Positions 491 to 45,361 are shown, numbered from the stretch's first letter. The stretch: 64,000 nucleotides of DNA from Nitrososphaerota archaeon (GCA_038874475.1 JAVZCJ010000003.1:59463-123462); one strand, 5' to 3'. Numbers and translations are program-made. Notes: generated by a model from the sequence alone, not told the origin.

Positions 491-1105
491 TCAAGGAACA
501 TATACTATAAAATTTCCATTTAAATTATAAAATATTAATCTAGCTTTACCTCTTCCTGACTCATATGGTGGAGGATAAGCAACAATTATTTTAAATGTTT
601 TTGCTCCATAATATAATTCTTTTTCGCTTCCTTTAAAAATTACTTGATGAATTTTACTCTCAATCTTCGTTATTTCATTTGGATAAACTTTTTCTTCAAT
701 ACTTGCTACTAACGCTCCTTCTCCTTCTGCTGTTTCATATTCATAAAAAATAACTGGATATGTATAATTTGTATTAGATTTAGCATATATTGTCCAATTT
801 AATAGTACTGTATAAGTTCCTGTTTCATTATTAAAATAAACATTTTCCACATTTATTTTAAAATCTATAATTGTAATATTATATCTAAATGTGAAACTTT
901 CAGTAGTATTAGTATTATTTTCTATTAATGTTTTTGAAGTATTAAGAAACGTTGTTTTATAATTAATAGTTTTACTTATATTTGTGATGGATGTTGTATA
1001 ATTAATAGTAATTTCATTATACTTATTTTTATTTATATAAAAAAAGATAGTGGCTGATAGTGCTACTACTATAATTAATAATATTGTCAAAAAATATTTT
1101 CTCAT
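491..1105 (-). CDS. hypothetical secreted or membrane-anchored Asn/Thr-rich protein
   Basis: 204-aa ORF with an N-terminal signal/anchor helix (FLTILLIIVVALSATIFFYI) and many N-x-S/T sequons. No catalytic motif recognised. Confidence 0.5.
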   Translation of the reverse strand: MRKYFLTILLIIVVALSATIFFYINKNKYNEITINYTTSITNISKTINYKTTFLNTSKTLIENNTNTTESFTFRYNITIIDFKINVENVYFNNETGTYTVLLNWTIYAKSNTNYTYPVIFYEYETAEGEGALVASIEEKVYPNEITKIESKIHQVIFKGSEKELYYGAKTFKIIVAYPPPYESGRGKARLIFYNLNGNFIVYVP

Positions 1106-2995: not shown

Positions 2996-3703
2996 ATGGT
3001 TGAGAAAAATTATAAACCTCCAGCCTCTATTGAAGTTGAAGATTTAAAAAATTTTGCTAGATTAACTATGGGATGGTCAAATGAATATAGACCTTTATTA
3101 TGGGGATTTAATTATAAGAGAAAAAATATTCTAGGATACCTTTCTTCTTTACCTTATTGGAAAGGAAATTTGCCGATATTTGCTTATACTATATTGGATA
3201 GCGAACCTAAAGGATATTTAGCTTATACAAATATTGAACGTGAAGAAGTTTTCTTTACAAATGATACAAATAATAATAAATTTTCTTATGCAGCTATAGT
3301 TGAAATAGATGAAGTTCCAGAGATTATATCTTATTCTCTTAAAAAAGGAAAAATATTCTATGAAAAACCTGTAAGTATTAAAGTTAAAAATATTAATTCT
3401 CTTTTAAGAGTTTTATTAATAATGTCTGAAGGTGGATTTTCTCCTCCTTTATGGCTATTTAATAATAAAGAGAAAAATGTTCTAGGTGCTATAACTCCAT
3501 TCTATGATTATTATGAAGCAAATGCTTTGCCAGTATTTTTCTATATTGAAAGCAATGAATCTTCAACAGGAGCATTCATAAAATATCTTCCATCTGAAGA
3601 AAAAGAAATTTTATCTTATACAGATTATATAAGTGATATGAAGTATTTTTATGCAAGAATAATAAAAGTTAAGAATATGCCATTTTATACAAAAAATAAA
3701 TAA
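2996..3703 (+). CDS. hypothetical protein made of two tandem ~105-aa repeats
   Basis: Repeat 1 reads ...LTMGWSNEYRPLLWGFNYKRKNILGYLSSLPYWKGNLPIFAYTILDSEPKGYLAY. Repeat 2 reads ...LIMSEGGFSPPLWLFNNKEKNVLGAITPFYDYYEANALPVFFYIESNESSTGAFIKY. No known family recognised. Confidence 0.5.
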   Translation: MVEKNYKPPASIEVEDLKNFARLTMGWSNEYRPLLWGFNYKRKNILGYLSSLPYWKGNLPIFAYTILDSEPKGYLAYTNIEREEVFFTNDTNNNKFSYAAIVEIDEVPEIISYSLKKGKIFYEKPVSIKVKNINSLLRVLLIMSEGGFSPPLWLFNNKEKNVLGAITPFYDYYEANALPVFFYIESNESSTGAFIKYLPSEEKEILSYTDYISDMKYFYARIIKVKNMPFYTKNK

Positions 3704-8246: not shown

Positions 8247-8276
8247 ATTTTAAATTGTAATATATGATGATTGAAA

Positions 8277-9133
8277 ATGATTGAAAGAATATGTGTAACA
8301 AATCTTGTTGACGATTCTGTTGATATGGGGCATCCAAATGTTTTAGCTAAACATGGACTAGCTTTATTCATAGAAATAGATTTTAATGAAAAAGAGAAAA
8401 TAAATATTTTAATGGATACTGGTCCTTCTCCAGATATAATTTTACATAATGCAAAAGAATTAAATATTGATTTGAGAGGAATAAATATGATCGTAATTAG
8501 TCATGCACATTATGATCATACTGGTGGATTAATAGGAGTTTTAAAACATATAAATAAAAAAGTATTGATTATAATGCATCCAAATTGTTTAAATTTAAAA
8601 TTTGCTGAAAAACCTTATCTAAGATATATAGGCATTCCATTTAAAATTTCAGAAATAGAAGAAGCAGGTGGAATACTATTGTTATCTTGCAAACCAGTAA
8701 AAATAACTCTGAAATAATCGTAAGTGATGAAATAGAAAGGATTAATGAATATGAAAAAGTAGAAGGTTTTTTAACATTGAAAGATTATGAAATTATTAAA
8801 GATAATCTTTTAGAAGACCAAGCACTTTTTCTTAAAATTAATGATAAAGGATTAGTAATTATTACAGGTTGTGCACATTCAGGAATAATTAATACAATTG
8901 AATATGCTAAAAAAATTACTGGTTTAAATAAAATACATGCAATTTTAGGGGGTTTTCATTTAATAAATGCTAATGAAGAAAAAATAAAAATAACAATGGA
9001 TGAAATGAAAAAAATAAATCCTGAAAAAATTTTTCCTTGTCATTGTACTGGGCAAAAAGCAATAATGGAATTCATTAAAAATTTTAAAGATAAATGTATT
9101 CCAATTCAAGCAGGAAAAAGTATTGAATTATAA
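8277..9133 (+). pseudogene. MBL-fold metallo-hydrolase (COG1237 / MJ0301-like family) interrupted by a frameshift
   Basis: ORF 8271..8717 carries HAHYDHTGG. ORF 8687..9133, in another frame, carries GCAHSGIINT, GGFHL and CHCTG. Together they make one ~285-aa MBL protein. The frames swap at an A5 run at 8699-8703. Confidence 0.7.
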
Positions 9134-23042: not shown

Positions 23043-23661
23043 AAAGCAAGATTTTTACAAGGAATTAAAAGCCATCAATTTCAAGAAATTGTAAAACAAA
23101 AATTACAAGAAATTCATGGAAATTCAGTAAAGCAATGAACTTTTTCAAAGAATAAATGCGAGAATAAGAAGACAAAACAAAGATTGGATAGAGAAAACTT
23201 CAAAGAAGCTTATTGATATTGCATTAGAAAGTATTGAAAAATACAATTGTAATGTTGCGATAGTTTCTTTTGAAGATCTTAAAGAATATAAAGCTGGAAA
23301 TAATAGCAAGAAAACAAACAAGAAAAATGCTGAATGGTTAAGGAAAATAATTCAAAGAACATTTGAAAAATCTTTGTGGAATTATCCTACAAAGGTATTA
23401 ACTTATTTGCCAACATTCAATAAAAATCAAAGAAATATAAAACAAATCTTAGTTAATGCTGACTATACTTCAAGAATATACAGTAAATGTGGAAATGAAG
23501 GAAAATTAATAAAATATATAGCAAAAGGAAAAATAAAGAGATACTTTAAATGCAATAATTGTGGATATAAAGACGATAAACATTTCAATGCTTCAAGCAA
23601 TATTGCAAAAAGAGCAATTGAATATCTTAAAAAGGTTGCTTTTCCCGAACCCATGTGCTAA
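23043..23661 (+). pseudogene. tnpB: IS200/IS605-type tnpB remnant (C-terminal RuvC/zinc-ribbon half only, frameshifted)
   Basis: The two frames read ...KQKLQEIHGNSVKQ* then NELFQRINARIRRQNKDWIEKTSKKLIDIALESIEKYNCNVAIVSFEDL...NADYTSRIYSKCGNEG...FKCNNCGYKDDKHFNASSNIAKRA. The RuvC-II E, the YTS motif, the CxxC..CxxC ribbon and the NA..NIA motif are recognisable. The N-terminal ~200 aa (including the RuvC-I Asp) are missing. Confidence 0.7.
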
Positions 23662-23671
23662 GGGAAAGGCA

Positions 23672-23910
23672 GCCAGAACCAAGCTTCCTATTTAATAGGA
23701 AAACAGCATTCTGCTAAGGAAAGGAAGGCCTCCCCCTGAAGCAGAAGCCTCGAGCTAATTTTCAACAAATTAGCAATGAAAGGGGTTAAACAGTTTAAAA
23801 CTGCTCTGCTGTTGTCTCCCAAGGGGAGGAGAAGCCATCTATGTTCTTTCAACAAGAGTATAGGTGGCTTCCAGAGAGGAGAGGCTAAACTATGGTAGGA
23901 AGATTCTGGC
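23672..23910 (+). ncRNA. GC-rich, highly structured RNA candidate immediately 3' of the tnpB remnant (omega-RNA/reRNA-like position)
   Basis: A closing helix joins 23672-23678 to 23904-23910 and 23684-23688 to 23898-23902. There is an 8-bp hairpin at 23754-23774 and an 18-bp hairpin at 23831-23871. Both hairpin loops are UCAAC. The G-U pairs are only valid on the + strand. G+C is far above the surrounding spacer. Confidence 0.55.
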
Positions 23911-23982
23911 AATAAACTTAAATTACTGCAATTTTTGAAATTTTTAAAAGAAAACACTATAAACTGAGAATTTAATTTTTAA

Positions 23983-24399
23983 TTAGAGTTTTCTAGGATC
24001 TATTCTTATTAATCCCGGTATAGTATCATATACATCATCTGTTGAGATTATTTTATGATCTTCAACTTGATTTAAAGCGGTAGCAGCATAATATGCATCA
24101 AATATTGATTTTAAATTGTATTGTCTCATTAATGTTAAAGCTAAAAGGTCTATTTCATATGTTGTTTCTAAGAATTTCAAATTTTCTATAGCTGTTATCG
24201 ATGCAGCTCTAGCAATGTACTCATCTAAGCTAACTCCCTCTTCCTTTGAAATATAATAAAGTTCATGTAAACACTCTCTTGAGGTATAAACTATTCCAAA
24301 TTCTCCTACAACAATTCTTTTTATAATATTCTCAGCAGTAGCTTTTAACCAATCTTCTTTTTTAATAAATGCATATAGTATATCTGTTTCAATCATCAA
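23983..24399 (-). CDS. vapC: PIN-domain ribonuclease toxin VapC
   Basis: 138 aa with acidic PIN residues (IETDIL, ..HELYY.., IFDAYYAATAL, ISTDD). It overlaps the upstream antitoxin gene by 11 nt. Confidence 0.85.
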   Translation of the reverse strand: MMIETDILYAFIKKEDWLKATAENIIKRIVVGEFGIVYTSRECLHELYYISKEEGVSLDEYIARAASITAIENLKFLETTYEIDLLALTLMRQYNLKSIFDAYYAATALNQVEDHKIISTDDVYDTIPGLIRIDPRKL

Positions 24400-38155: not shown

Positions 38156-39373
38156 TTATATTTTTAATATTTCTTTAAAAATTTCTTCATTATTTGAGCC
38201 AATTAAAAGAACTTCATTTTTTAAAAATTTTAAAGATAAAAATCTATTTTTATTCTTCCAAACATCTTTAATAATTTCTATAGAATTAGTTTTATTCATC
38301 ATTTCTCTAAAACAATTATAAAATTCTAATGCATCTTCTTCTCTATCCCAAACAATTTTCCAAAAGAAAACATAATTACTTACATTATTTTCTCTTATAT
38401 AAAATGTAAAATTATCTCCACCCCATCCTTCAGCTGCTTTTTCTGATAAATCTTCACCAATCCAATTTGATAGCATAATTCTTAAAAAATATTCTCCATA
38501 TGTTTCTGTTTTAGCAATAGACCATTCTGAAATATTTAATCTTATTCCATCAACTTTTATTGGTTCTTCATATATCAAATATTTTTCTGGATGTAATATT
38601 TGCTCAGTTGATTTTGGAATATTTTCATATGCTTGATTAACTTTATTCCATCCTCCTAAATTATATAAAAATAAAATGAAGTTTTCACCATATTTATAAG
38701 GGAAAAATAATATTTCATCTAATGCATTTTTACTATTATAAGATTTGAAAAACAATAAACTTAAACCAATTTTGTTCTCTTTTATTCTTTCAATAAATTT
38801 TTTAGAAGTTAATCCAGCATCACCTTCAATAAGTGCAGACCATGCTTGTATTTCATCGTGAGTTTTAAGAGATGGAGTTTTAAAATATTTACCTTGAATA
38901 ATATGAGTAATTTCATGAGATAAAATTTCATAAGCTTTCTCTAAATCGTAAGGATTAAAATATTCTCTAACTATGTATATTACTCCACCACTTGTAGCAG
39001 CTAAAACATATCCTGATTGTTTAATCGTAGTTTCTTTTAAACTAACATTTTCAGAAATTAAAAAAAGAGCTTTATATATTTCTTCTTTAATTTCAATTTC
39101 TTTCAAAGAAATTTCAACTTGTCTTTTACCCCAATTTTCTTTAACCCAATCTATTGTGACTATTTCAATTCTAGAATCATTTGGTGGCTCTAAACCTCTA
39201 ACTTCTTTAATATTAGATAAAACATTATGGAAAATTTTTTCAGATTCTTTTCTATATTCGTCTGGAAAAATAATTTCAATTAAGAGATTTTTTATTTCAT
39301 AATAATAAAAGCTAAATATGAAACCAATTAATATGGATAGTATTATTGTTAATACTAATATTCTTTTTCTCAT
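38156..39373 (-). CDS. membrane-anchored zinc metallopeptidase (peptidase MA clan, HExxH + EGxA)
   Basis: N-terminal TM helix. SHEITHIIQG is followed 24 aa later by ALIEGDAG, a gluzincin arrangement. Confidence 0.6.
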   Translation of the reverse strand: MRKRILVLTIILSILIGFIFSFYYYEIKNLLIEIIFPDEYRKESEKIFHNVLSNIKEVRGLEPPNDSRIEIVTIDWVKENWGKRQVEISLKEIEIKEEIYKALFLISENVSLKETTIKQSGYVLAATSGGVIYIVREYFNPYDLEKAYEILSHEITHIIQGKYFKTPSLKTHDEIQAWSALIEGDAGLTSKKFIERIKENKIGLSLLFFKSYNSKNALDEILFFPYKYGENFILFLYNLGGWNKVNQAYENIPKSTEQILHPEKYLIYEEPIKVDGIRLNISEWSIAKTETYGEYFLRIMLSNWIGEDLSEKAAEGWGGDNFTFYIRENNVSNYVFFWKIVWDREEDALEFYNCFREMMNKTNSIEIIKDVWKNKNRFLSLKFLKNEVLLIGSNNEEIFKEILKI

Positions 39374-39458
39374 TTCTTATCAAATCAAAGATTAATTTGA
39401 ATAAAAATTTTTTAAAAAAAAAAAGAAGAGAAATTTTAAATTTTTTATACTATTATTT

Positions 39459-40454
39459 TTATCGACGTTTTCGCATAACAAGATAAAGGACCATTATAAT
39501 AACAACTACAATAACGGCTATAATTCCCAAAGTCATTACATCAAAACCAGCTGGTGCTGTGGTTGTAGGAGTTATTGTAGTTGGAGTTGTTATAGTTATT
39601 GGGGTTTTAGTAGGTGTGGTTACTTCTGTAGTTGTAGGAGTTGTTAAAGGTGGAGGTGTAGCAGGTGTTTTTGTTGTAGTAATTACAATAGTTTCTGTTA
39701 TAGTAGTCCCTGGTTTTATGATTACGCTTGTGAGTGTAGTCCCTTTAACTACGCTTGATATATACTCAGTTGTTCCCGGAAAACTTATAGTAGTCTTATA
39801 AGTAGTGCCTTTTAAAGTTTCAGTTTGTATAACAGTCGTTTCAATGGGCATCGGTAAAGTCATAGTAATTCCAGGAACAGTATAAGTTGCTCCAGGCATA
39901 GCTACAAAAATAGTTGCAGGTACTTTTTCTGCTACATAAATCATTACTTCCTTGATGGTTATTTTATTACAGGATTTGATAATTTCACCATAAATTGGAA
40001 AAGGCATTGTTATGGTAGTAATTCCAGGAATTTCTGTTTCAAATTCTACTGTAGCAAAACCAGTCGTAGTTACAACTGTGCCACCAATTGTTTCTATAAA
40101 AGTAGTAGCATATGTAGGAATTGAAATAATTGTACTATAAGTTGCTCCAGGAACAGTAATAGTAGTTCCTGGAATAGAAATGACTTCGTCCGGTAAAGCT
40201 TTAATCGTTGCAACACATACTTGATCAGGATGTTCTTCTTCCATAATAATTTTATAACCTGGCATAATCATAGTTGCTATAATAGTAGTATCAGGTTGTT
40301 GAATTGTAGTAGTAATAGTGGTTCCAGGAATTGTAGTAACTTTAGTTGTTGTAATCGTAACAACTTGTTGGCCAATCACTATTTTTGTAAACCATATAGA
40401 AATAATTACAATAATAGTCAAATGCAAAATTTTTTTAATAATATTTTTATTCAA
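39459..40454 (-). CDS. Thr/Pro-rich repeat surface protein with C-terminal membrane anchor
   Basis: N-terminal signal peptide and recurring PG(T/A/I)T(I/Y)T units. A Pro/Thr linker TPATPPPLTTPTTTEVTTPTKTP... leads to a C-terminal TM helix plus an RKRR tail. Confidence 0.6.
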   Translation of the reverse strand: MNKNIIKKILHLTIIVIISIWFTKIVIGQQVVTITTTKVTTIPGTTITTTIQQPDTTIIATMIMPGYKIIMEEEHPDQVCVATIKALPDEVISIPGTTITVPGATYSTIISIPTYATTFIETIGGTVVTTTGFATVEFETEIPGITTITMPFPIYGEIIKSCNKITIKEVMIYVAEKVPATIFVAMPGATYTVPGITMTLPMPIETTVIQTETLKGTTYKTTISFPGTTEYISSVVKGTTLTSVIIKPGTTITETIVITTTKTPATPPPLTTPTTTEVTTPTKTPITITTPTTITPTTTAPAGFDVMTLGIIAVIVVVIIMVLYLVMRKRR

Positions 40455-42063: not shown

Positions 42064-43545
42064 TTATGCTGGAATGTATCTATACTCTTTATAATACATC
42101 CAAAACTCTATATAAGCATCTGGATCATCACTAGTAAAATGGCAATATGCATAAATCCAGACTGCATATTGATTTGGACCAGAATTTTTATCTCCCCACC
42201 ATGCATTACCATTACCATGTGTATCATATTTATAGCTTACTATTTCGATCCACCATCCAGAATCTGCAAGTTTAATTAATATATTTTGTTGATTTTTCTC
42301 ATCTTTCCTTACAGCTTTCCAATACACATATCCAGTTCTTTCTTCACGACTATAAGAAGTGGTAGTTTGAGTGATCGTATAAGTTATAGTTGTGGTAGGA
42401 GGATTATAAGGAGATGTAGAATATCCGAAATATCTTTTTAATTTATAATTTCCAAACATTGCAAATGATATTGAATTTGAAGTTGTTTCCAATATCTTTC
42501 TTACCTCATTTCCAAATTGATCCAATTCCCAAAGTTCCATTTTTGTTACATACATATATAATTTTCCATATGGTCCTATATAATTATAACCATTAGTTAC
42601 ATAAATTTTATCCCATTTCCAAGAACAAGGGAATGACCTAAATGAATGAGATATTGTTAATAATATTCCTGCAGGATAAACATATTCTCCATCATCATAT
42701 CTTCTTCCATAAGGATCGCTATTCGGTTGTATGCCATCTCCCCATACATCATGATAATGTTCATCATTACTTTGATCATCATACTCATGTATTTTATACC
42801 ATTTTGGATTATCATCTCTTGGAGAAATTTGAAATGGACCATGAGATTCTATTTTTAAAGTATAACTTCCATAAAAAGTAGTAGCAAATGTTTGATTTAT
42901 AGTTTCTATAAGAGTAGTGTAATAATATGATACTATTTCTCTTTCAGCAGTTTTAGTGATTTTTCTAACAGGATAATAAGCAGAACCAAATGTATTTCCA
43001 AGTATTGTATGTAGAGTTATGCATCTTATTTTATTTTTGAAAAACCAGAAATCTTCTGCATATTTAGAATCGTTTAATTTAAATGTACTTAGTATATCAT
43101 TCCCTTTTAATACTATTTCTTCTCCTGCTTCTAAAACTATATTTAATCTTCCTTTAGAAATTATTTCTCCATTCCAATCTTCTATTACAAAATAATCTAT
43201 TACACTTGTTTTTCCCCATTGATTTGTAATAGTTATTCTTGTTTCATATTTTTTATTTATAGTTGACGTGTTTGTAGTTATTATAGAAGTAGTTGTATTT
43301 AAAATTGTAGTATACGTTGTTACAATATTAGAATTTTCATATTTTTCATCTATGCTTATGTATATTCTTATTAATTCATTCCCAGCTTCAGCTTCAATTT
43401 TAATAGCTTCTTTTGAAGTAATAGATATTCTACCAATTGTCACTATTCCTGTTATAAAACTTAAAATAATCATTAGTATTATCAATGCTGTTATTAATGG
43501 ATTAAAAATAGACGCTCTAACTTTCTTTTTATTTATTTTATTCAT
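42064..43545 (-). CDS. pilin-like protein (class III signal peptide) with a large Trp/Tyr/Asp-rich C-terminal domain of unknown family
   Basis: The N-terminus KKKVRA/SIFNPLITALIILMIILS is archaeal prepilin-like. Residues ~40-190 are paralogous to the 167-aa neighbour (VIDYF..., ...LHT..GN.F). The C-terminal ~300 aa were not recognised. Confidence 0.6.
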   Translation of the reverse strand: MNKINKKKVRASIFNPLITALIILMIILSFITGIVTIGRISITSKEAIKIEAEAGNELIRIYISIDEKYENSNIVTTYTTILNTTTSIITTNTSTINKKYETRITITNQWGKTSVIDYFVIEDWNGEIISKGRLNIVLEAGEEIVLKGNDILSTFKLNDSKYAEDFWFFKNKIRCITLHTILGNTFGSAYYPVRKITKTAEREIVSYYYTTLIETINQTFATTFYGSYTLKIESHGPFQISPRDDNPKWYKIHEYDDQSNDEHYHDVWGDGIQPNSDPYGRRYDDGEYVYPAGILLTISHSFRSFPCSWKWDKIYVTNGYNYIGPYGKLYMYVTKMELWELDQFGNEVRKILETTSNSISFAMFGNYKLKRYFGYSTSPYNPPTTTITYTITQTTTSYSREERTGYVYWKAVRKDEKNQQNILIKLADSGWWIEIVSYKYDTHGNGNAWWGDKNSGPNQYAVWIYAYCHFTSDDPDAYIEFWMYYKEYRYIPA

Positions 43546-43586
43546 TTTCCCTTTCTTTCTTTAAGTATCCAACTTAAAGAAAGGAT

Positions 43587-44090
43587 TTAATTAAATTCTA
43601 AATGAGGTATTTCATATTTTGAAATGAATAAATTTCCATTTGTAGTGTGTAATACTATGAATTCGATATATTTTTTAAAAATATTCCAATCATTCATATA
43701 TTCAGGCAAACCAATTTTTTTAATGTCAATATTCTTTTTATCTCCTTTCTCTATTTTTAAATTCATTGATCCTTTAACTAGTAATTTTCCATCTTTTGAA
43801 ATAATATAGAAATAATCTATTACAACATCACATCCAGAAAGATTTACTATTAAAATGTTTGTGTTGCTTGAATTTTTCCATTCATCTTTTGTTATACTTC
43901 CATTATAAATGTAAATTTCTAAATTTTCTTTTGTTCTTTCATTCTTCATCATATGTTGTATTATTTCTGCTTTTTCTTGGATTTTAGAAAATCCAATTCC
44001 AATAGATAAAAATGACATTAAAAACATTGTAACTACTATTAAAATCATTGGAACAAAAATTATGCTTATTCCATATTCTTTTTTATTCAT
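43587..44090 (-). CDS. pilin-like protein (class III signal peptide)
   Basis: MNKKEYG/ISIIFVPMILIVV. The beta-rich body is paralogous to the N-terminal part of 42064..43545. Confidence 0.6.
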   Translation of the reverse strand: MNKKEYGISIIFVPMILIVVTMFLMSFLSIGIGFSKIQEKAEIIQHMMKNERTKENLEIYIYNGSITKDEWKNSSNTNILIVNLSGCDVVIDYFYIISKDGKLLVKGSMNLKIEKGDKKNIDIKKIGLPEYMNDWNIFKKYIEFIVLHTTNGNLFISKYEIPHLEFN

Positions 44091-44775
44091 ACAAAAACCT
44101 CTTTAGGAAAATTTCCATATGTTTTTTATTCTTTATTTTAAATTTTAAGGAAAAATTTGTAAAACATAATGCTATTAAGAAAGTATTTTTAATGAATTCT
44201 AAATGAATTAAACTAATGGTTGTACCTTTTTCTATTTTTTGAGTATAAGTATAATTCATTGTAGTTGTAACATAGGAAGTAATTGTTTTGGTTACTGTAT
44301 AAATAGAGGTTAAAATAGTAGAAATATAAGAAGTAAATGTTATTTCGCTAGGTAAATTTTCAATCCAAGTTTCTTCAATCATAGTGAATTCTTTCTTAGT
44401 AAATTTAAATAGGCTTCCAGATAGAGTTTCGATCATTAAATTTCTTCCATATGGTATTAATATCTCCTTTTTATCATGAGGATTAATAATTATTAAATCA
44501 TTTGATTTATCTATGGTATTATTATCTATATATATTTTCTTTATAATTACTTTTATTTCTCCATCATTGGATAAAATACAATAATTTGGTCCCCAATAAA
44601 TTAATGATATTTTCTCTAATATTTTTCCTTCTTCTTTTTCTAATTCACTTGTTATAACTTTACTTGTTATCTTTGTTTGATAAATGAAAAAGTAAGTTAT
44701 AAAACTTCCAATGGATAGAATAACTATTGTTAAAGCAATATATGATAACACATTACTTATTCCTTTTTTATTCAT
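44083..44775 (-). CDS. pilin-like protein (class III signal peptide) with Thr-rich segment
   Basis: MNKKG/ISNVLSYIALTIVILSI, a beta-rich body, a T-x-T-x-T stretch and a hydrophobic C-terminus. It overlaps both neighbours. Confidence 0.6.
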   Translation of the reverse strand: MNKKGISNVLSYIALTIVILSIGSFITYFFIYQTKITSKVITSELEKEEGKILEKISLIYWGPNYCILSNDGEIKVIIKKIYIDNNTIDKSNDLIIINPHDKKEILIPYGRNLMIETLSGSLFKFTKKEFTMIEETWIENLPSEITFTSYISTILTSIYTVTKTITSYVTTTMNYTYTQKIEKGTTISLIHLEFIKNTFLIALCFTNFSLKFKIKNKKHMEIFLKRFLYE

Positions 44776-45197
44776 GGCATTACCACCGTGCTTGCAATTG
44801 TCTCCATTGTTCTTCCATCTTGATCTATCGAACCAACAATTATTGTAAGCTTTTTTCCAATTTCTTGATAAGGAATAATTGCTTCAATTTCATAATTTTC
44901 TGATGGTTCAAGATTTTTCGAGCCAATCCAAATATTTCCAATTCCCTTAACGCTTATTGCGCATAATGTAATTTTTGTATTTCCAATATTTGCAATATTC
45001 ATTTTTATTAATGTTTTTTCATTCCATTGAATTGCTCTTACTTCAATTATCTCAATTTTAGGATTGTAAGAAAGATTTTTAGAATATGTTATTGAAAATA
45101 ATCCTGTTAATGAAATAATTGAAAATAAAATAATCACTAATAATATTTCTGAAAATATTCTTGATATTGCTTTATTTAAAAATTTTACTTTATACAT
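44772..45197 (-). CDS. small pilin-like protein (class III signal peptide)
   Basis: KFLNKA/ISRIFSEILLVIILFSII followed by a ~100-aa beta-sandwich-like domain. It is the first gene of the four-gene operon. Confidence 0.6.
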   Translation of the reverse strand: MYKVKFLNKAISRIFSEILLVIILFSIISLTGLFSITYSKNLSYNPKIEIIEVRAIQWNEKTLIKMNIANIGNTKITLCAISVKGIGNIWIGSKNLEPSENYEIEAIIPYQEIGKKLTIIVGSIDQDGRTMETIASTVVMP

Positions 45198-45361
45198 ATC
45201 ATTATACCAATAGAAAATTTTTTATTATAAAAATAGAAATAATTGTAATTACTTTAAATTTGTTAAATACGTGGAATATTAAAAATGGGAATATACATGT
45301 TTCAATTTTTTCCATTTACATTTCAATATTTTAAAGAAAAACAAAATTTATAAGCACCACT

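Follow-up and report, generated by a model that had tools for sequence, protein, structure and literature searches.

A four-gene operon of pilin-like proteins in an uncultured hot-spring archaeon, with candidate motor genes on another contig

Four genes on the minus strand occupy positions 42,064 to 45,197 of a 64-kb stretch of archaeal DNA (JAVZCJ010000003.1:59463-123462, assembly GCA_038874475.1), the whole of which is called the window here. The window has a GC content of about 26% and carries genes for the proteasome, the exosome, SBDS and prefoldin. Its host is an uncultured hot-spring archaeon related to Methanomethylicia (Thermoproteota). An earlier note on this DNA had described four overlapping or abutting genes for pilin-like proteins, and all four open reading frames (ORFs) do have the coordinates and lengths it gave them:

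44772..45197, minus strand: gene 1 (141 aa), a small UpsA-like type IV pilin paralogue
44083..44775, minus strand: gene 2 (230 aa), an UpsB-like pilin core (residues 1 to about 125) followed by a threonine-rich tail
43587..44090, minus strand: gene 3 (167 aa), the small member of an apparently undescribed pilin-like family
42064..43545, minus strand: gene 4 (493 aa), a large pilin-like subunit

Between genes 1 and 2 there is an overlap of 4 nt (ATGA), between genes 2 and 3 one of 8 nt, and gene 4 begins after a spacer of 41 nt.

The products were said to begin with class III (prepilin-like) signals. Each of the four proteins has a single hydrophobic segment, at about residues 4-44, after a start rich in lysine and arginine, and the N-termini quoted in the note are present, as are the other peptides quoted there. 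The putative cleavage sites, marked by a slash, would be NKA/ISRIF in gene 1, KKG/ISNVL in gene 2, EYG/ISIIF in gene 3 and RA/SIFNPL in gene 4, with A10, G5, G7 and A11 as the respective residues before the predicted cut. In gene 4 the hydrophobic segment covers residues 8-44, and the consensus at the N-terminus of the 493 family is KKKxG/IxS. Alignments of orthologues, distant ones included, keep Gly or Ala at -1 and Ile/Val-Ser at +1/+2.

Family models give a first indication of what follows the signals. Gene 1 matches the NCBIfam model for UpsA over its full length (E 1.6e-5; 25 bits, where the cut-off is 130), and gene 2 matches that for UpsB (E 5.9e-6; 26.4 bits, where the cut-off is 70). 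The only Pfam match of gene 1 is a borderline one to DUF2393, a family of proteins with a transmembrane segment and a beta-sandwich. Genes 3 and 4 have no match above threshold in Pfam, NCBIfam or PHROGs.

Profile comparisons tie the proteins to pilins. Four profiles were used: A6 for the 149/158-type pilins of related loci, A5 for the 141 family of gene 1, A7 for the N-terminus of the 230-aa protein and A3 for the 167/493 family of genes 3 and 4. The first of these matches subunits of solved archaeal type IV filaments (8fk7, E 4e-13; 8q30, E 5e-8) and, further, the filament structures 6w8u, 8fjs and 9myg. In hhalign comparisons the 141 family aligns with these pilins with 99.7% probability (E 5.6e-27), and its profile also finds 8fk7 in the PDB (E 0.0017). 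The N-terminus of the 230-aa protein aligns with the pilins at 97.7% (E 1.6e-12). For the 167/493 family the match to the pilins is at 85.5% (E 5.7e-6) and takes in only about 90 N-terminal columns. The pilin link is weakest for genes 3 and 4. The AlphaFold2 model of the 493-aa protein consists of a long N-terminal helix (residues 16-52) and then beta structure, and Foldseek matches the full-length model to the type IV pilin of Pyrobaculum calidifontis (8fk7) with a probability of 1.00 and a template modelling (TM) score of 0.44. The full-length model has a predicted local distance difference test (pLDDT) value of 64.6. Its other matches, to toxin and macroglobulin structures, have TM scores of about 0.1 and are meaningless, and the pilin match alone was kept.

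The profile links, together with the conserved N-terminal pattern, argue that all four proteins, each with one N-terminal helix, belong as divergent members to the superfamily of archaeal type IV pilins. The note's description of them as pilin-like is supported. In sequence and predicted fold they resemble archaeal type IV pilins, and the four "hypothetical proteins" can be annotated as pilin-like.

Genes 3 and 4 belong together more closely. The 167- and 493-aa proteins are 39% identical over 89 aa by BLASTP (E 2e-11), far beyond chance, and their family has the signature motif LHTxLGNxFxSxY, or more loosely LHTxxGNxFxSxY. The note had taken the 230-, 167- and 493-aa proteins all to be paralogues. 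This is borne out by BLASTP for the latter two; the 230-aa protein has no BLASTP similarity to either of them, and its kinship appears only at the level of profiles, where hhalign relates its N-terminus to the 167/493 family at 95.1% (E 3.2e-8). The module shared by genes 3 and 4 occurs also in proteins of 150-670 aa from GC-rich archaea, with other C-terminal extensions. Genes 3 and 4 are a paralogous pair from a pilin-like family that is undescribed, as judged on Pfam, NCBIfam and PHROGs. A match of gene 3 to ATV_ORF273 was weak (E 0.027) and had no backing from PHROGs or from tblastn against phage and plasmid sequences, and the idea of a viral or plasmid origin was dropped.

Gene 4 has the most elaborate layout: a signal and helix, a threonine-rich linker, the gene-3 module and then, according to the model, two predicted beta-sandwich domains. 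Its parts are:

43390..43545, minus strand: residues 1-52, a basic n-region (MNKINKKKVRA/S) and the hydrophobic helix
42976..43245, minus strand: residues 101-190, the beta module common to gene 3
42415..42870, minus strand: residues about 226-377, a predicted middle beta-sandwich domain confined to the narrow 493 family
42067..42354, minus strand: residues 398-493, a predicted C-terminal beta domain rich in Trp and Tyr, the most variable part of gene 4

A model of residues 221-493 alone is more confident (pLDDT 82.5, and about 85-94 in the C-terminal domain) and is all-beta, with two sandwich-like domains. The earlier note could assign this region to no family, and we can do no better: Pfam, NCBIfam, PHROGs, the PDB and BFVD yield no confident match. 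Against the PDB, the best that Foldseek finds for residues 221-493 is the lectin discoidin II (E 0.012, TM score 0.21), discarded as too weak. Against BFVD nothing appears at E<=0.001, and the best of the weak matches are to uncharacterised phage proteins and to the sandwich domains of tail fibres and receptor-binding proteins. The unusual composition that had been remarked on is real: the C-terminus of the 493-aa protein has 6.5% Trp and 13% Tyr, compared with 1.4% and 4.6% in the other proteins of the window. The two H..WGD motifs pointed out in the note (HYHDVWGDG and GNAWWGDK) are likewise present, but they are found only in the closest relatives and are not conserved in the alignment of the family, which makes an enzymatic site unlikely. 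Of the note's two suggestions for the protein, a tip adhesin or an enzyme, the adhesin is the best reading.

Homologues of the 493-aa protein are few. A search of 5.8 billion proteins found 16, and an exhaustive profile search covering 1.84 billion representatives found 31. Neither the middle nor the C-terminal domain occurs outside this narrow family, and the 493-aa protein is a mosaic. The C-terminal domain is 88% identical to those of the closest relatives only and is replaced or divergent in the others. In its middle domain the protein has 97% identity to a paralogue at another locus of the same population (L055:3-461), but in its C-terminal domain only 50%. In the homologue at locus L049, the N-terminal part is 61% identical to gene 4. 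Also, in a DNA run, read depth over positions 42282-43486 of the window is two to three times that of the flanks, an excess that fits the mosaic make-up of gene 4. This suggests gene conversion between paralogous large pilins (window 42282-43486; L055:3-791).

Identical or nearly identical copies of the operon are found in several metagenome-assembled genomes (MAGs) from hot springs and in metagenome contigs, always between the same flanks: upstream is a gene for an N6/N4 DNA methyltransferase, and downstream one for a phosphoglucomutase in divergent orientation. In about 10 related contigs the four ORFs are intact and syntenic, with 71-84% amino-acid identity. Against these orthologues, the ratio of nonsynonymous to synonymous substitution rates (dN/dS) is 0.28-0.37 for gene 1, 0.27-0.33 for gene 2, 0.25-0.28 for gene 3 and 0.38-0.55 for gene 4, and 0.14-0.29 for neighbouring genes. 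Values of 0.25-0.55 indicate purifying selection on all four genes, more relaxed than that on housekeeping genes. Relaxed purifying selection is usual for surface proteins. Gene 4 is mosaic and has the highest dN/dS of the set, as would be expected of an exposed recognition module. In one run, labelled as a metatranscriptome, coverage of the operon is about as deep as that of the neighbouring genes, which is weak evidence of expression, since contig data cannot exclude carry-over of DNA.

Upstream of gene 1 lies one further feature of the operon:

45198..45361, minus strand: intergenic region with an AT-rich TATA-like stretch and the remnant of an ORF

The TATA-like stretch, TTTTTATAA, is about 30 nt 5' of the start codon of gene 1 and is a candidate promoter by its sequence alone. 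The remnant is a 37-aa ORF (45202..45315, minus strand), what is left of a 65-aa ORF that in the relatives L007-L009 overlaps the start of gene 1. Beyond the other end of the operon, at 38156-40454 (minus strand), is a gene for a threonine-rich protein of 331 aa with a signal-like segment at its N-terminus and a membrane anchor at its C-terminus. It adjoins a gene for a 405-aa surface protein of the Hvo_1808 family (DUF8575, with an HExxH motif). Both genes stay in synteny with the operon in every close relative, and their products may be functionally linked surface proteins.

Related loci, gathered by looking up exact proteins and by scanning genomes and metagenomes, place the operon within a longer series. 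Across more than 25 loci the same order is kept: a 149-type pilin, then the 141, 230, 167 and 493 types. Comparison with relatives supports a single conserved operon. The series may have one or two small pilins (158/149 type), a 141-type gene, one or two of the 230 type, a 167-type gene and one or two of the 493 type, and it ends with threonine-rich proteins of 217-238 aa. Gene 2 represents a short form, as its 230-type relatives often have 535-705 aa. At 491-1105 (minus strand) the window encodes a 204-aa protein with an N-terminal membrane helix, many N-x-T sequons and no family match; it is like the threonine-rich proteins of the full clusters in style, not in detectable sequence.

In several relatives the series is followed by assembly genes. 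At locus L014 a T2SSE ATPase is encoded two genes after the 493-type gene. At L044 and L036 an ATPase gene comes after genes for a PMT_2 glycosyltransferase and a SpoIIM-like protein, and at L044 a T2SSF platform gene and one for a Flg_new_2 protein come next. Locus L049, which carries a gene 4 homologue with 72% identity, continues with genes for an RHH protein, a RadB/KaiC-like ATPase, an M48-like peptidase, a ParB-domain protein, T2SSE, T2SSF and an HTH protein. Its first pilin, of 144 aa, matches UpsA (E 1.3e-19) and passes the TIGR02537 model of pilin N-termini. Its platform matches UpsF (E 1.2e-60), and its ATPase FlaI (E 1.1e-79) and BasE (E 1.8e-76), all below the equivalog cut-offs. 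The KaiC-like gene of the relatives is best read as RadB (ArlH, E 5e-4).

Some features of these loci deserve mention in their own right. In the two GC-rich loci (L044:6001-8081 and L036:2152-4202) the PMT_2 and SpoIIM-like genes stand between the large pilin genes and the ATPase gene, and this position hints at what may be a dedicated enzyme glycosylating threonine-rich pilins. The note had thought the threonine-rich linkers might be O-glycosylated; a single observation, this PMT_2-type gene in the cluster of distant relatives, suggests that they may be. At L014:2419-14309 (ENA ERZ27275847, GC 54%), genes for CedB-like (E 1.4e-18) and CedD-like (E 1.1e-16) ATPases of the HerA/VirB4 type lie directly 5' of the pilin series, and the order is Ced-like ATPases, UpsA/UpsB-like pilins, 167/493-type genes, T2SSE ATPase. 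This looks like a locus that combines Ups-like and Ced-like genes, in an organism whose GC content and sequence distance place it outside the Sulfolobales. The complete clusters of the AT-rich lineage (L010:1096-18623, L049:6229-14815 and L055:2176-17995) each lie on one strand, amid genes for RHH, RadB/KaiC-like, M48-like, ParB-domain, HTH_45, TFIIB, ERCC4, NOV_C, Cdc6/Orc1 and TnpB-like proteins, and one MAG, GCA_038845695.1, has two such clusters. They may constitute a mobile or DNA-transfer island.

Where, then, is the machinery for the operon in the window? The note had reported no assembly ATPase or platform, and within the window this is true: neither Pfam scans nor precomputed annotations identify T2SSE, T2SSF or Peptidase_A24 among the ORFs of at least 120 aa, and of two ORFs without a family (2996-3703 and 491-1105) that were considered as a possible hidden prepilin peptidase, neither is polytopic. 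It is not true of the genome bins. A search with the L049 ATPase found a protein, P0066, with 56% identity on contigs of two MAGs, GCA_038872755.1 and GCA_038870775.1, and these same MAGs hold the contigs L005 and L003, which are 100% and 99.97% identical to the window. The machinery contigs, L051 and L053, encode a 138-aa UpsA-like pilin of the 149 type (E 7.8e-16), a T2SSE ATPase (FlaI, E 2.6e-84; BasE, E 2.3e-82), a T2SSF platform (UpsF, E 1.2e-55; BasF, E 3.1e-49) and a Flg_new_2 protein. Since the window operon and the L051 locus together comprise the families that are contiguous in L014, L044 and L049, the cluster is best regarded as split rather than as lacking a machine. In GCA_038850765.1, a sibling bin from this population, there is a machinery locus with 99.6% identity to L051 and in addition the second, complete cluster L055. 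Elsewhere on the machinery contig (L051:17961-19544) is an ORF with intein-splicing and LAGLIDADG domains, and the 99.6%-identical sibling (L052) has a plain TPP_enzyme_C gene in its place; the intein is strain-variable.

How these proteins relate to characterised systems is a matter of resemblance. Among NCBIfam models, the small pilins and the platform match UpsA, UpsB and UpsF of the Sulfolobales Ups system best. Also shared with Ups are a ParB-domain protein near the cluster in relatives and the CedB-/CedD-like ATPases beside the L014 cluster, but here there are extra pilin families (the 167/493 type) and more pilin genes. The scores lie far below the cut-offs: the L051 platform has 189 bits for UpsF (cut-off 400) and 168 for BasF (cut-off 1300), and the L051 ATPase 284 bits for FlaI (cut-off 550) and 277 for BasE (cut-off 1000). 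A test for an archaellum found no match to archaellin, ArlF or ArlG. With every curated cut-off missed, the proteins do not qualify as components of Ups, Bas or the archaellum.

For the 493-aa protein, the closest analogue studied by experiment is UpsC of Sulfolobus. UpsC reportedly was recognised only in 2025. It (Saci_1302 / SiRe_1957) is a large minor pilin of the ultraviolet-inducible Ups pili of Sulfolobales, a 49-kDa protein whose class III signal is cleaved by PibD and which is needed for aggregation; its gene lies outside the ups operon, and a GspK-like position at the tip has been proposed (PMC11823120, PMC11868833). Like UpsC, the 493-aa protein combines an N-terminus of the class III type with a large C-terminal part, occurs beside UpsA- and UpsB-like small pilins and is encoded away from the operon for the ATPase and platform, and for UpsC too a role at the tip or in recognition has been proposed. 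The two differ in domain make-up and in lineage, the present one being related to Methanomethylicia, and the large pilin here shares its operon with three smaller ones. The NCBIfam UpsC model gives no match to the 493-aa protein at E<=1.

The layout also recalls the minor-pilin operons of bacteria, GspH-I-J-K of type II secretion and FimU-PilVWX-PilY1 of type IVa pili, in which four or five genes encode pilin-like proteins of rising size, the largest with an extra domain. Those operons often lie apart from the genes for the major pilin and the motor, and their products are thought to prime assembly and to cap the filament. The resemblance is one of analogy, as no sequence or fold homology was detected past the generic pilin N-terminus, and the signal here is archaeal. 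Among archaea, a census of type IV pilus loci predicts minor and adhesin-like pilins, infers stand-alone sets of pilins and ATPases that serve several sets, and lists KaiC-like ATPases and TFIIB among the genes of such loci (Makarova et al. 2016, PMC4858521). As here, its loci have several fast-evolving class III proteins each, and large all-beta "pilins" of 250-550 aa (PMC4858521); the 167/493 family differs in having no model in Pfam or NCBIfam.

We favour the reading that the operon encodes an accessory (minor) pilin set of a Ups/Bas-like archaeal type IV pilus, with the motor genes elsewhere in the genome, and would give it somewhat better than even odds (roughly 0.55). The four precursors would enter the membrane by their class-III-type N-terminal helices, to be cut, presumably by a prepilin peptidase of the PibD type, after the Gly or Ala. 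The FlaI/UpsE-like ATPase and the UpsF-like platform, encoded in trans, would then assemble them. The 138-aa UpsA-like pilin would be the likely major subunit, and small subunits resembling UpsA and UpsB would come from genes 1 and 2. A priming or tip complex might be formed by the 167/493 pair, to which the products of genes 1 and 2 may also belong, and it would display the two beta-sandwich domains on a threonine-rich and probably glycosylated stalk. Gene 4 would most likely sit at the tip as a recognition or adhesion subunit, as proposed for UpsC and for bacterial GspK.

Several points tell against this reading. The 167/493 family reaches a probability of only 85% against pilins, and hhalign finds no match between it and the 141 family. 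Some of the large-subunit relatives carry extra membrane segments, internal or C-terminal, which are odd for filament subunits. Most of the four N-termini fit the strict FlaFind-type motif only in part: they depart from it at +3 (R or N), gene 3 also at -2 (Y) and gene 4 at +1 (S). The equivalog cut-offs for UpsA, UpsB, UpsF, FlaI and BasE are all missed by a wide margin, and a prepilin peptidase was not located among window ORFs of at least 120 aa. The window is joined to the machinery by metagenomic binning, though two independent bins agree, and the presence of L055 in the same population makes it ambiguous which ATPase is the cognate one. Finally, the evidence for transcription consists of contig coverage in a single run labelled as a metatranscriptome.

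Perhaps the proteins belong instead to a bindosome-like pseudopilus, short and embedded in the envelope, that holds the large beta-sandwich protein and perhaps other surface proteins, as one may compare with Bas of Saccharolobus. The ATPase and platform score almost as well for BasE and BasF as for FlaI and UpsF, at L051 and similarly at L049, where the small pilins also have weak matches to BasA and BasC (E 0.002-0.01). Extra membrane segments in some large relatives also speak for it, as do the sugar ABC transporters with binding proteins in the window. The Bas scores, however, are all far under the cut-offs of the models, and the small pilins match best UpsA, UpsB and the subunits of real filaments. 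We regard this as a possibility, well short of probable.

Less likely again is that the four are ordinary type II membrane-anchored surface proteins, held by an uncleaved signal anchor and independent of any pilus machinery. In its favour are the imperfect class III motif, the lack of a peptidase or ATPase gene in the window and DUF2393 as the only Pfam match of gene 1. Against it stand a cleavage-site pattern (G/A at -1, I/V-S at +1/+2) kept across distant orthologues, pilin profile homology that spans the globular part too, and the repeated linkage to T2SSE and T2SSF genes.

It is improbable that the operon, now without function, is what is left, in decaying or selfish form, of a mobile element with a full pilus cluster. 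Missing from the set in the window are indeed the 238-type gene, the machinery and both of the upstream pilins, it has the 37-aa ORF remnant upstream and an orphan N6/N4 DNA methyltransferase gene adjacent, and the full clusters of sibling bins lie amid Cdc6, ParB, TFIIB, TnpB and ERCC4 genes. Against this, the four ORFs are intact and syntenic in about 10 contigs, with dN/dS of 0.25-0.55, and comparison with known phage and plasmid records and with PHROGs families revealed nothing similar. Least credible of all is an enzyme, secreted or on the surface, for which the H..WGD motifs of the 493-aa protein would form part of the active site: the composition is unusual, being rich in W, Y and D, and there are two similar motifs, but the motifs are confined to the closest relatives, neither a family nor an enzyme fold was matched, and the model is an all-beta sandwich whose best, if weak, fold match is a lectin.

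Two other places in the window may be recorded. At 8271-9133 (plus strand) two 148-aa ORFs overlap. The match of the first to the metallo-beta-lactamase fold is limited to the N-terminal half of that fold, and a frameshift in the gene or a faulty assembly may be the cause. At about 23374-24399 a short TnpB-like fragment (Cas12f1-like_TNB) has as its neighbour a PIN-domain gene, which overlaps a small ORF upstream of it; the arrangement looks like a toxin-antitoxin pair next to transposon debris.

Type IV pili as such are well known. Their subunits in archaea evolve fast and are mostly annotated as hypothetical, and minor and tip pilins are, to our knowledge, almost unstudied there. What is new is the split layout and an undescribed family of pilins with a large mosaic subunit, in a lineage related to Methanomethylicia. 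The locus defines a conserved series of five pilin families, one of them without a database model; the series can be separated from its motor, and the large mosaic subunit is its probable recognition element. Ups pili have, as far as we know, been reported from the Sulfolobales only, and the locus extends Ups-like systems to an uncultured hot-spring lineage. One might go further, tentatively, and see in the window operon and the L051 locus a Ups-like recognition pilus outside the Sulfolobales, its specificity set by recombining 493-type pilins and its action coupled to DNA exchange or conjugation. The Ced-like ATPases of L014 and the ParB-domain and RadB-like genes of the full clusters are the basis for this doubtful step. 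If it is correct, the pilus would belong to an apparatus for exchanging chromosomal DNA, or to a conjugative element, in archaea related to Methanomethylicia, and the pairing at L014 makes DNA exchange outside the Sulfolobales a testable proposition.

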